In this document: in pieces, positions 1-1,316 of the stretch
Layout: the number at the start of each line of letters is the position of its first letter
Numbering within the stretch: position 1 is the stretch's first letter
Source of the DNA: Candidatus Scatovivens sp.
GTDB lineage: Bacteria; Bacillota; Clostridia; TANB77; CAG-508
Assembly (NCBI GenBank): GCA_045646345.1
Contig: JAZRKN010000013.1
Span: 1 to 17,562, forward strand
Length of the DNA: 17,562 nt
Direction of reading: 5' to 3'
Translations under genes and position numbers: made by a program
The notes under the pieces: model-generated
Database searches by the model: none
Told to the model about the DNA's origin: nothing
What the model saw: the letters and a program-made list of their open reading frames with translations, nothing else

Positions 1-179
1 ATGGATGTGGTTTGTGGCAGTTCGATAATGGTTGGTTTGGACATGATGGAGGATTGCCAGGATTGAGACATTGGCAAAGGTTGAATTCTAAGGATAAAGT
101 GGCAATCATTATCCTCTCTAATGTTGTTATAGAGGAACCACCCTTTCTTGCCCAAATGATGGAATACTTTATTCGCTAA
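1..179 (+). CDS. 3' end of a serine hydrolase, beta-lactamase/AmpC-like family (5'-truncated by window edge)
   Basis: Not in the ORF track. The frame from position 3 reads GCGLWQFDNGWFGHDGGLPGLRHWQRLNSKDKVAIIILSNVVIEEPPFLAQMMEYFIR* (TAA 177-179). The GxG...GHxGGxPG...hydrophobic-LSN pattern is the typical C-terminal signature of PF00144 serine hydrolases. The catalytic SxxK lies outside the window. GC is 72/180 (40%), above the rest of the window. Confidence 0.75.
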   Translation, partial: GCGLWQFDNGWFGHDGGLPGLRHWQRLNSKDKVAIIILSNVVIEEPPFLAQMMEYFIR

Positions 180-217
180 ATTACAATTTTGTAATTTGTT
201 AGATAAATAGTAATTTG
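177..217 (+). repeat. 41-bp imperfect palindromic inter-gene repeat, copy 1 (candidate cassette recombination site)
   Basis: TAAATTACAATTTTGTAATTTGTTAGATAAATAGTAATTTG; 37/41 identical to 834-874; begins on the TAA stop of the upstream CDS. Confidence 0.9.
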
Positions 218-233
218 TAAAGGAGAATTAATA

Positions 234-836
234 ATGAGAATTTACGATATTTCTCAAGAAGTTTTTGGTTGCCAAGTATACCCTGGTGACCCAGTACCAG
301 AAAAAAAGACACTTAATTCAATGAAAAATGGTGATTTGTACAATTTGACTGCATTTAGTATGTGTGCTCATAATGGTACTCATATAGACGCACCATTTCA
401 TTTTATTAAAGATGGAAAAACAGTAGATGATATACATTTAGAATCATTTGTAGGACTTTCTTATGTTGTCGAACATCACGGGATTATTTCTAGAGAAAAT
501 GCTATGGAAATAATTGAAAAAGCAAAGAAATATAATCCAGAAGCTGTAAAAAGAATTCTTATTAAAGGAGATGCAGAGGTTACTGAAGAAGCAGCGAAAA
601 TATTTGCTTCATCTGAAATATTTCTTTTAGGAAACGAATCTCAAACAGTTGGATCAGAAAATGCTCCAATGGTGGTTCATCAAATACTTTTGTCTGCTAA
701 TATTGTTTTACTTGAAGGAATTAGATTGACAGATATTTCAGAAGGTGTTTATTTTTTAAATGCTGCTCCATTGAATTTATCAGGTGCGGATGGTTCTCCT
801 TGTAGAGCTTTATTGATAGATACTACTGAGAGATAA
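234..836 (+). CDS. Cyclase family metal-dependent hydrolase (kynurenine formamidase/KynB-like)
   Basis: HNGTHIDAPFH matches the HxGTHxDxPxH signature; C-terminal H-x-x-LL...LLEG...GADGSPCRA motifs; RBS AAGGAG at 220-225. Confidence 0.93.
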   Translation: MRIYDISQEVFGCQVYPGDPVPEKKTLNSMKNGDLYNLTAFSMCAHNGTHIDAPFHFIKDGKTVDDIHLESFVGLSYVVEHHGIISRENAMEIIEKAKKYNPEAVKRILIKGDAEVTEEAAKIFASSEIFLLGNESQTVGSENAPMVVHQILLSANIVLLEGIRLTDISEGVYFLNAAPLNLSGADGSPCRALLIDTTER

Positions 837-874
837 ATTACAATTTAGTAAATTGCTAGATAAATAGTAATTTA
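834..874 (+). repeat. 41-bp imperfect palindromic inter-gene repeat, copy 2 (candidate cassette recombination site)
   Basis: TAAATTACAATTTAGTAAATTGCTAGATAAATAGTAATTTA; 14-bp inverted arms with one A/A mismatch around a 13-nt spacer; begins on the TAA stop of the cyclase gene. Confidence 0.9.
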
Positions 875-905
875 GATAATAGAGATGCAGTGAAAGGAAA
901 ATGTT

Positions 906-1291
906 ATGAAATCATTTAATAATGAATTTGAGAATTATAAAGTTGAAGCACAGGAAAAATGGGGAAAAACAAAAGAATATAAAGAATATTTGCAAAAATG
1001 TATTCAAAAGAAAAATGGAATAATTTATCTGAAGAAATGAATGCAATTTTTATAGAATTTGCAACTTATATGAAAAAAGGTGACGAACCAAGTTCATTAG
1101 ATGTTCAAATTTTGGTAAAAAAATTACAAGATCATATTTCAGAAAATTATTATCTTTGTACAAATGAAATTTTATTAGGACTTGGACATATGTATGTTAT
1201 GGATGAACACTTCCATAATAATATTGATAAATGTTCAAATGGCACTGCTGAGTTTGTTTGTGAAGCAATAAAAATATATTGTAAAAAATAA
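906..1291 (+). pseudogene. Stand-alone TipAS antibiotic-recognition domain protein, frameshifted near 993-998
   Basis: ATG 906 (RBS AAGGA 894-898) reads MKSFNNEFENYKVEAQEKWGKTKEYKEYLQK, then runs to TGA 1038-1040. The -1 frame continues YSKEKW...PSSLDVQ...LGLGHMYVMDEHFHNNID...GTAEFVCEAIKIY. Both halves fit the TipAS pattern (EAxExWG; GLGxMYVxDxRF; GxAxF..AI). Confidence 0.8.
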
Positions 1292-1316
1292 AAATCCAGT
1301 ATTTCTACTGGATTTT
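1291..1316. terminator. Bidirectional intrinsic terminator between the TipAS gene and tRNA-Met
   Basis: AAAATCCAGTA-tttc-TACTGGATTTT: perfect 11-bp stem between convergent genes. Confidence 0.8.

Follow-up and report, generated by a model that had tools for sequence, protein, structure and literature searches.

A 39-bp palindromic junction between single-gene units in mobile cargo regions of gut Clostridia, and its candidate role in cassette exchange

Introduction

The stretch of DNA analysed here (the window, 17,562 nt) is the entire contig C13 of a 1.79 Mb assembly of Candidatus Scatovivens sp. (JAZRKN010000013.1; 19 contigs, 27.5% GC), an organism placed among the Clostridia in the NCBI taxonomy. 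At its left end lie three genes, the last part of a beta-lactamase-family gene, a putative cyclase-family gene and a TipAS-domain gene, which are separated by two copies of a palindromic repeat and are followed by tRNA-Met. A first-pass annotation had proposed that they form the distal end of an integron-like cassette array. Here we describe the conserved core of the repeat, a 39-bp element termed E, as the junction at which co-oriented single-gene units change neighbours in the cargo regions of tRNA islands and conjugative elements, and probably the site at which they are cut and joined. Comparison was made with 201 sampled genomes from 50 genera of one family, presumably CAG-508/TANB77 of GTDB, with 185,579 species represented by one genome each, and with gut-metagenome runs (X5, X11 and X13 below) in the form of assembled contigs, not raw reads. 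Further contigs of the source genome carry C numbers (C1, C3, C16, C17 and others) and compared loci L numbers (L004, L050, L172 and others).

Results

A complete island at tRNA-Met

The two 41-bp copies of the repeat, at 177–217 and 834–874, are identical at 37 of 41 positions and 657 bp apart, and a degenerate 40-mer finds both in the window while 200 shuffles yield no match. Both copies start on a stop codon, because the upstream open reading frames (ORFs) 3–179 and 234–836 end in TAA at 177–179 and 834–836; the alignment and the ORF ends thus bear out what the first-pass annotation had said of them. The next genes start at 234 and 906, 17 and 31 nt past the repeat and each behind an AGGAG-like site, leaving, as had been claimed, no room for a separate promoter or terminator: a scan of positions 1–1500 gave weak promoter-like matches only and no intrinsic terminator between the array genes, the sole terminator being that at 1291–1316, which adjoins tRNA-Met. 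The description of the repeat as bounding promoterless, co-oriented and unrelated accessory genes holds, as do their assignments (PF00144, PF04199 and PF07739) and the higher GC content of the first, at 0.407 compared with 0.323 for the cyclase gene, 0.238 for the TipAS gene and 0.284 for the window. The last gene was rightly seen to be decayed and to abut the tRNA terminator, its frame being shifted by a 7-base indel at about position 992 relative to the contigs of all four metagenome runs compared. Since there is no L half-site (see below) at its 3′ end, the TipAS gene is the terminal, resident unit of the island. The hairpin of the terminator recurs with a tRNA-Met 3′ fragment in L050, and the window array as a whole is static and partly decayed.

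The sequence that precedes the window is available on contig C17, whose start overlaps window positions 1–110 with two mismatches. A remnant of the tRNA-Met 3′ end (tggtagcgacga) lies on C17 about 1.65 kb upstream of the window start and is followed, some 150 bp further on, by a promoter with an extended −10 box (TGGTATAAT), 7 nt, and then ATAAATAGTAATTT with a ribosome-binding site (RBS). Behind this promoter head comes a gene for a 171-aa P-loop kinase-like protein, whose stop codon is overlapped by the 12-mer AAATTATAATTT, and then the beta-lactamase-family gene that runs into the window. The window island is complete: it measures about 3 kb from tRNA-Met remnant to tRNA-Met, contains only two full copies of E, and has the order promoter head, kinase gene, 12-mer, beta-lactamase-family gene, E, cyclase gene, E, TipAS gene, terminator, tRNA-Met. 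The proposal that the window shows the end of a longer array, with a further copy at each gene boundary to the left and a recombinase at the head, is not upheld by C17, which adds no full E; no integrase was found inside the island and no recombinase at the array head across C17 and the window, nor is one linked in any array examined.

Anatomy of E

The 39-bp core, AAATTACAATTT-WGTRATTWGNTAGAN-NNATAGTAANTT, comprises a left half-site L (AAATTACAATTT, positions 1–12), a middle of 15 bp and a right half-site R (AAATAGTAATTT, positions 28–39), R being the reverse complement of L at 11 of 12 positions. Each half-site is itself a small palindrome, AAAT(T/A)-NN-AATTT with AC or GT at its centre, while positions 12–20 form a second, inner inverted copy. 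L was identical in 29 of 30 places in the family survey, where up to three mismatches were allowed, and collapsed 12-mers (AAATTATAATTT) occur besides the full element. Direct reading finds neither GTTRRRY nor RYYYAAC in E, in agreement with the earlier statement that the sites lack attC cores. The variable positions of E (15, 16, 18, 20 and 37) are not matched by compensating changes in L, in which position 3 is constant, and for this reason no structure is claimed; as single-stranded DNA both window copies fold weakly (about −5 kcal/mol, two different hairpins, z-scores of −2 to −4), and a hairpin as an established structure was discarded on these grounds. A search of L001, L050 and L172 against Rfam 15 with cmscan (E-value at most 1) returned only tRNAs and chance-level matches away from E, with nothing on E or on the tail described below. 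E was also considered as a promoter and set aside, the matches reaching 9 of 12 only.

Exchange of neighbours at E

The 40-nt flanks of the 206 instances of E with both flanks present fall into 118 upstream and 112 downstream clusters, which occur in 196 combinations. Through E, 33 upstream clusters are joined to between 2 and 9 downstream clusters, the extreme being a GNAT-YoaP gene, and 40 downstream clusters to between 2 and 6 upstream clusters, the extreme being a DUF3781 gene. Homology breaks exactly at E position 1, at 12/13, at about 25 or at 39/40. Thus L004 and L035 have the GNAT-YoaP gene and E in common (−775 to +38) and differ beyond position 39, while L019 and L036 have E and the downstream gene in common and differ before position 1. 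The comparison of relatives suggested by the first-pass annotation therefore turned out as it had foreseen, with gene units found beside different neighbours and breakpoints that lie within the repeat or at its margin.

The same behaviour is seen for the cyclase unit of the window. Positions 178–846, from E position 1 to position 12 of the next E, are 99.25% identical to L050, where the identical 39-mer of E copy 1 stands upstream of the same cyclase gene, and the flanks differ: a LysE-family gene takes the place of the beta-lactamase-family gene upstream, and on the downstream side an unrelated tail rich in terminators, with a tRNA-Met remnant, comes after L. Metagenome contigs (seven runs from seven studies) diverge after position 846 into TTAAAGGAG (X5 and X13) or GTAAGGCAAATT (X11), and before 178, 202, 204 and 211 into other left neighbours, among them the promoter head joined at R and the collapsed 12-mer; at copy 2 there are in all at least three right-hand neighbours other than that of the window, and further left flanks appear before 835. 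Of the instances of E, 25 of 77 from genome collections and 13–14 of 75 from metagenomes are no more than 150 bp from the end of their contig, compared with 0–8 in each later 150-bp bin, an enrichment that fits branching of assembly graphs at variable junctions.

A tail of the L050 type is also present behind a CAT-like (chloramphenicol acetyltransferase) gene and L at the end of contig C1. The two copies (L050, 3668–4060; L172, which is C1 at about 7770–8160 on the minus strand) run from an L half-site to a tRNA over about 390 bp of non-coding DNA, are 86% identical between genomes and contain several hairpins and terminator-like stems without a match in Rfam; the tail may represent an att region or a structured small RNA.

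Unit structure and solo insertions

The full order in L050 is hydrolase gene, L with a diverged middle, HTH-XRE gene with its own terminator, promoter with R, 51-aa gene, L, MBL-fold gene, R, LysE gene, E, cyclase gene, and L with the tail. This order of half-sites defines the unit, which consists of an R-side leader, an RBS, one ORF, its stop codon and L. Two adjacent units make a full E, and a unit beside backbone DNA leaves either an L-only junction, in which L is followed by a terminator tail or by an RBS, or an R-only junction, in which a promoter with an extended −10 box is followed after about 6 nt by R. One DUF3781 gene is met in three such settings, behind a full E, behind a promoter and R head, and behind L alone with an RBS.

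One unit also occurs alone. It spans 315 bp (E, RBS, an 82-aa DUF3781 gene and an L-like 12-mer) and is 98–99% identical in three contigs, where the homology starts at E position 1 and stops after the 12-mer; the three contexts are unrelated and richer in GC (36–41%), and in one of them the unit is inserted in a host gene, five codons short of its natural end, beside rplU-rpmA-obg.

Distribution and gene context

The source genome holds three copies of E, one more than the two known to the first-pass annotation. The third, at C16:656–694 on the minus strand, lies between an alpha/beta-hydrolase gene, whose TAA overlaps E, and an ABC ATPase gene truncated by the contig end. The element is sharply delimited, with a bimodal distribution of scores: a weight-matrix scan of this genome gave three matches at 56–59 bits and none in the reversed control, and no diverged copies beyond the three appeared at up to 8 mismatches or with a 45-column weight matrix at 15 bits or more. 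In the family survey E was present in 23 of 201 genomes and 17 of 50 genera, with one or two copies each by the strict pattern. About 140 stretches with E were found among the species genomes and about 470 in metagenome contigs, with one to five copies per contig, the hosts being small, AT-rich metagenome-assembled genomes (MAGs) of gut Clostridia. Record titles, taken for 80 of 131 loci, all denote small gut MAGs of Clostridia-like kind; apart from one labelled Roseburia sp., the labels are Clostridium sp. CAG:793, CAG:780, CAG:417 and CAG:433, Candidatus Scatovivens, and uncultured Clostridia, Bacilli, Mollicutes, Tenericutes or Firmicutes. BLAST searches with E and its flanks gave no true match in 72,556 plasmids (chance-level partial matches only) and none in 50,697 phages. 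One copy occurs in IMG/VR, on a 60-kb contig classed as viral (L311, a UViG entry), which may be a phage or a misfiled conjugative element.

The position of E between genes is regular. Among 214 distinct instances, 195 could be assessed upstream, and in 168 of these a same-strand ORF ends between 2 nt inside E and 29 nt before it (at most 6 nt from E in 130, with the TAA overlapping E in 34). Downstream, a Shine–Dalgarno (SD) site, start codon and ORF follow within 150 nt in 164 of 191 cases, and the start lies 10–29 nt after E in 115 of the 164. Neighbouring ORFs are nearly all co-oriented with E. The 34 distinct intervals from one E to the next range from 276 to 5714 bp; 20 are shorter than 1 kb, and 19 of these contain one same-strand ORF of at least 35 codons. 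The longest array seen has five copies (L190), four of which are overlapped by the TAA of the preceding ORF.

The cargo is accessory and often resistance-like (CAT, VanZ, ABC-F, GNAT, hexapeptide acetyltransferase, APH, MBL, GyrI-like, TipAS), and the arrays sit in the cargo regions of conjugative elements and tRNA islands. Those in conjugative elements come after a conserved operon (promoter, MBL-fold, YjbR, GIY-YIG, DUF3781), with genes for a type IV secretion system coupling protein and a relaxase nearby. A tRNA island on C16, at 62–67 kb, has the order xis, int, promoter with R, methyltransferase, L, HTH, PAP2, and L with the tail, so that xis-int directly precedes the promoter and R head.

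Two further arrangements of half-sites were noted. Six promoter heads of the source genome (C15:33006, C14:110213, C5:4077, C17:1494, C1:295720 and C16:64407), one of them before a gene for a pstS-like phosphate-binding protein, carry the leader (A/T)3ATAGTAATTT directly between the −10 box and the RBS, which may be a lineage-specific standard leader or operator. In L218 (OGDU01001803.1, 6582–9429) an inverted block between a full E and an R-only site holds a tyrosine recombinase gene and three pieces of type I restriction S-subunit genes, and resembles a phase-variable hsdS shufflon.

Search for an enzyme

The source genome encodes seven tyrosine recombinases, three of them Xer-like (on C7, 298 aa; C3, 332 aa; and C4, 339 aa); serine recombinases are absent, as are Y1 transposases (0 matches to PF01797). 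Island integrases are encoded on C16 (408 aa), C1 (412 aa), C15 (457 aa) and C11 (378 aa). The genes at C3:61–1059 and C4:38404–39423 are closely related and XerC-like, one of them at a contig end; the pair could be due to paralogy, strain mixture or contamination, which is estimated at 3.3% for the assembly. An integron integrase is absent from the source genome and from four others with multi-site arrays, none of the five passing TIGR02249 (best score 79 bits, cut-off 265). No transposase family is common to the five genomes tested (Y1 in one, IS110 in two); a search for Y2 transposases, 0 of 5, was silent in its controls as well and is uninformative. Patterns of dif type, modelled on Bacillus and Escherichia coli and possibly not those of this family, gave four candidates in the source genome, none of them like E. 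E itself may be read in a 7-6-7 arrangement, AAATTAC-AATTTW-GTRATTT. DUF3781 was considered as part of the machinery and rejected; it occurs in 20 of 200 family genomes but in only 3 of 22 that bear E, is missing from the source genome, and is cargo.

Features of the window and its surroundings

The coordinates of the array features are collected in Table 1. The DNA 3′ of tRNA-Met differs in seven of seven congeners, one of which has an integrase there. Conservation among eight congeners (window 1316–1392 with its flanks; L328–L334) is limited to the tRNA and some 70 nt next to it, which marks tRNA-Met as an integration hot spot, and the genes at 1520–6787, between the tRNA and asnS, are absent from this place by the tRNA in a relative in which asnS adjoins it. 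Just outside the tRNA-Met remnant, C17 carries on the opposite strand a GC-richer ORF of 248 aa without a Pfam match (about 1785–2531), which may be part of a neighbouring island. Elsewhere in the window, a MazF/PemK-type toxin gene (PF02452, 8420–8767) adjoins a 202-aa ORF (8822–9430) with a weak DUF4179 match, and no obvious antitoxin was called; a MinE homologue of 238 aa (11654–12370) has its MinE domain at residues 23–94 and a long C-terminal extension; and a protein of 1090 aa (13420–16692) has an N-terminal HD domain, the remainder having no Pfam family.

Table 1. Positions of the array genes, junction elements and island boundary in the window.
Feature	Position	Strand	Remarks
Beta-lactamase-family (SxxK serine hydrolase) gene, PF00144, last 58 codons	3–179	+	Remainder on contig C17
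Junction element E, copy 1 (39-bp core of 41-mer 177–217)	178–216	+	L 178–189 AAATTACAATTT; middle 190–204; R 205–216 AAATAGTAATTT
Putative cyclase-family gene, PF04199, 200 aa, cargo of 657-bp cassette	234–836	+	RBS about 220–228
Junction element E, copy 2	835–873	+	L 835–846; R 862–873
TipAS-domain gene, PF07739 (domain match 998–1291), frameshifted at about 992–998	906–1291	+	Profile match
Terminator-like hairpin common to TipAS gene and tRNA gene	1291–1316		Terminator scan
tRNA-Met (CAT), 3′ end is the island boundary	1316–1392	−	tRNA call

Discussion

Interpretation of E

The reading that we favour, with a rough probability of 0.55, is that E is the junction separating co-oriented single-gene units in the cargo of islands and conjugative elements and is likely to be a cut-and-join site for a recombinase or transposase acting in trans. 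Exchange would be sequence-specific, the DNA being broken and joined at L and at R. The catalyst would most likely be a tyrosine recombinase supplied in trans, either of host Xer type or from an island integrase, a suggestion that rests on elimination and on the analogy with dif modules and is the weakest link in the argument. Somewhat more tentatively, and at a little under even odds, we propose that E marks a previously undescribed gene-capture and shuffling system, in which single-gene cassettes, many with resistance-like genes, between 12-bp palindromic half-sites paired as the 39-bp junction are handled by a trans-acting and possibly host-encoded recombinase; cassettes would be swapped among tRNA islands and conjugative elements and now and then dropped into unrelated genomes. 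In the portions consulted of the literature on integron-like cassettes in Clostridia and on dif modules, E appears to be unreported; the exact 12-mers and 18-mers of E turn up in three papers, all unrelated.

Several observations weigh against a dedicated recombination site. The 651 ORFs found up to 3 kb from E include no recurrent recombinase, and around the five-site array L190 there is none out to 8 kb. The 408-aa island integrase was tried as the enzyme and rejected, homologues being present in 9 of 22 genomes with E and 66 of 178 without, which is no association. Neither an excised circle nor a precise deletion from one E to the other was seen in the assembled contigs of eight metagenome runs; a single joint of position 219 to 828, on one contig at depth 6 with a 20-nt side, is not trustworthy. 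The copy number per genome is low (1–5), and the three solo insertions present no target-site duplication and no common target. The R half is also found behind ordinary promoters, one of them that of a pstS-like housekeeping gene, so that part of E may be an expression leader and not a recombination site. Lastly, linkage between the flanks and the variable positions of E changes gradually and not in a step (31 + 31 pairs): position 13–14 tracks the upstream flank and 37 the downstream flank, while 16–27 are partly unlinked from both, a pattern that homologous exchange would also produce.

These last points would also be accommodated if E were a conserved expression linker acting at the level of RNA or transcription, in which L closes the upstream cistron and the middle and R supply a weakened −10 box and a standard leader before the RBS, the modules being shuffled among islands of one cell by ordinary homologous recombination over 39 identical bases with no dedicated recombinase. 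We regard this as the less probable explanation, though one to be taken seriously. E positions 13–39 do align with promoter-leaders (TATAAT-ctaatcg-ATAAATAGTAATTT compared with TGTAAT-TTGTTAG-ATAAATAGTAATTT), such promoter heads precede cargo operons as well as the pstS-like gene, and the start codon with its SD-like site at 10–29 nt in 115 of 164 cases is what a linker would show, as are the graded linkage and the lack of a recombinase linked to or associated with E. The −10-like hexamer, however, lacks the key A at its second position, and neither of the weak hairpins of E (about −5 kcal/mol) is backed by compensatory changes. Thirty-nine bp is also a short substrate for homologous recombination, which moreover cannot account for the 315-bp unit, because this sits with exact ends in three unrelated contexts, and cannot create the junctions of L with tail, L with RBS and promoter with R, where the breaks are always at 12/13 or about 25.

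The palindromic form of L, R and the inner arm, as half-sites of the ACAA/TTGT type, would suit the operator of a family-specific transcription factor, for example a membrane-anchored XRE-type HTH protein, with a drug and stress regulon behind it; HTH_3 proteins form the largest cluster of neighbours (31 proteins in 28 loci), and R just downstream of −10 boxes is in a typical repressor position. Such an operator is nevertheless improbable: near-identity over 39 bp with sharp edges across 17 genera is not what operators show, the downstream genes are not orthologous sets (112 flank clusters), most copies of E lie inside operons without a promoter, and E is patchily distributed, in 23 of 201 genomes, and goes with mobile-element cargo, with HTH genes on either side of E, as cargo. 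About as improbable is a selfish miniature element, resembling repetitive extragenic palindromes (REPs) and their mosaic arrangements (bacterial interspersed mosaic elements, BIMEs) or miniature inverted-repeat transposable elements, that inserts between genes at TAA and is unrelated to the differences in gene order. The two inverted 12-bp units with a short linker do recall a BIME, E stands directly after stop codons and it can collapse to a single 12-mer; but there are 1–5 copies per genome and not tens to hundreds, the source genome has no Y1 or REP-associated tyrosine transposase (RAYT) gene, and independent insertion into existing gene pairs is excluded by the 33 + 40 flank clusters in which gene order breaks at E. 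No gene pair was met both with E and lacking it, no dedicated search having been run.

Should E prove to be a true recombination site, the Bacillota would possess a cassette system that is invisible to searches based on attC and IntI, functionally comparable to integrons and dif modules, in uncultured bacteria that abound as commensals of the human and animal gut, with a cargo that includes chloramphenicol-acetyltransferase-like, VanZ, ABC-F, acetyltransferase, phosphotransferase and beta-lactamase-fold genes. L, R or E would then serve as a simple sequence tag for mining cassette pools in metagenomes, and as a new substrate for asking how trans-acting recombinases build modular cargo regions. 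Even if E is a linker shuffled by homologous recombination, it accounts for mosaic cargo regions and a class of assembly breaks in these genomes.

Comparison with known systems

Compared with REP and BIME elements, E has in common the short imperfect palindromes just after stop codons inside operons and the inverted pairs with a linker, but it is low in copy number, near-identical across genera and always located where gene order differs; there is no RAYT in the source genome, and PF01797 is matched in one of four other genomes. Mobile insertion cassettes are passenger genes between the terminal inverted repeats of an insertion sequence type, mobilised in trans. The solo E units likewise present a single, transposase-free passenger gene between short inverted repeats (R and L being inverse at 11 of 12 positions) in unrelated contexts. 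They differ in that no target-site duplication is found at the three solo insertions, in that L-type sites in direct order stand at both ends of the solo unit, and in that no transposase family is common to the five E-bearing genomes tested.

The likeness to integrons, from which the first-pass annotation set out, is more extensive. In both systems the units are co-oriented, mostly promoterless, single-ORF and 0.3–1 kb long, the site is an imperfect palindrome that starts at or on the stop codon, the array is headed by a promoter, the cassettes occur in many orders and contexts with accessory or resistance-like cargo, and assemblies break at the sites. Unlike attC, however, E has 39 bp and 12-bp half-sites of A and T only, lacks the RYYYAAC/GTTRRRY cores, and travels for the most part at the 5′ end of the unit and not at its 3′ end. 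Nor do E arrays have an IntI, an adjacent integrase or an attI, the head of the window array being a tRNA-Met remnant with promoter and R, and they comprise at most five sites in cargo regions of tRNA islands and conjugative elements of Clostridia. The idea of cassettes in the original proposal is therefore retained, the units recurring with other neighbours, while membership of the integrons is not supported, because there is no IntI, no attC core and no linked recombinase; the integron analogy is one of function.

The dif (pdif) modules offer a further parallel. Sites of pdif type alternate in orientation. E units resemble these modules in that short sites bound discrete gene modules and neighbouring sites are inverted, as L and R alternate in E; in that modules, including resistance genes, are shuffled between replicons; and in that no recombinase gene is linked, since the enzyme would act in trans. 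The Acinetobacter modules are reported to be moved by the host XerC/XerD (PMC6449649, PMC13141974, PMC7399989). The pdif sites are 28-bp XerC/XerD sites of 11-6-11 form, related to chromosomal dif and located on Acinetobacter plasmids, whereas E has no convincing likeness to the dif-type patterns of the source genome and its units lie on chromosomal islands and conjugative elements of Clostridia. By this analogy, the alternation of inverted half-sites and the unlinked enzyme would place E units nearer to Xer-dependent dif modules than to integrons.

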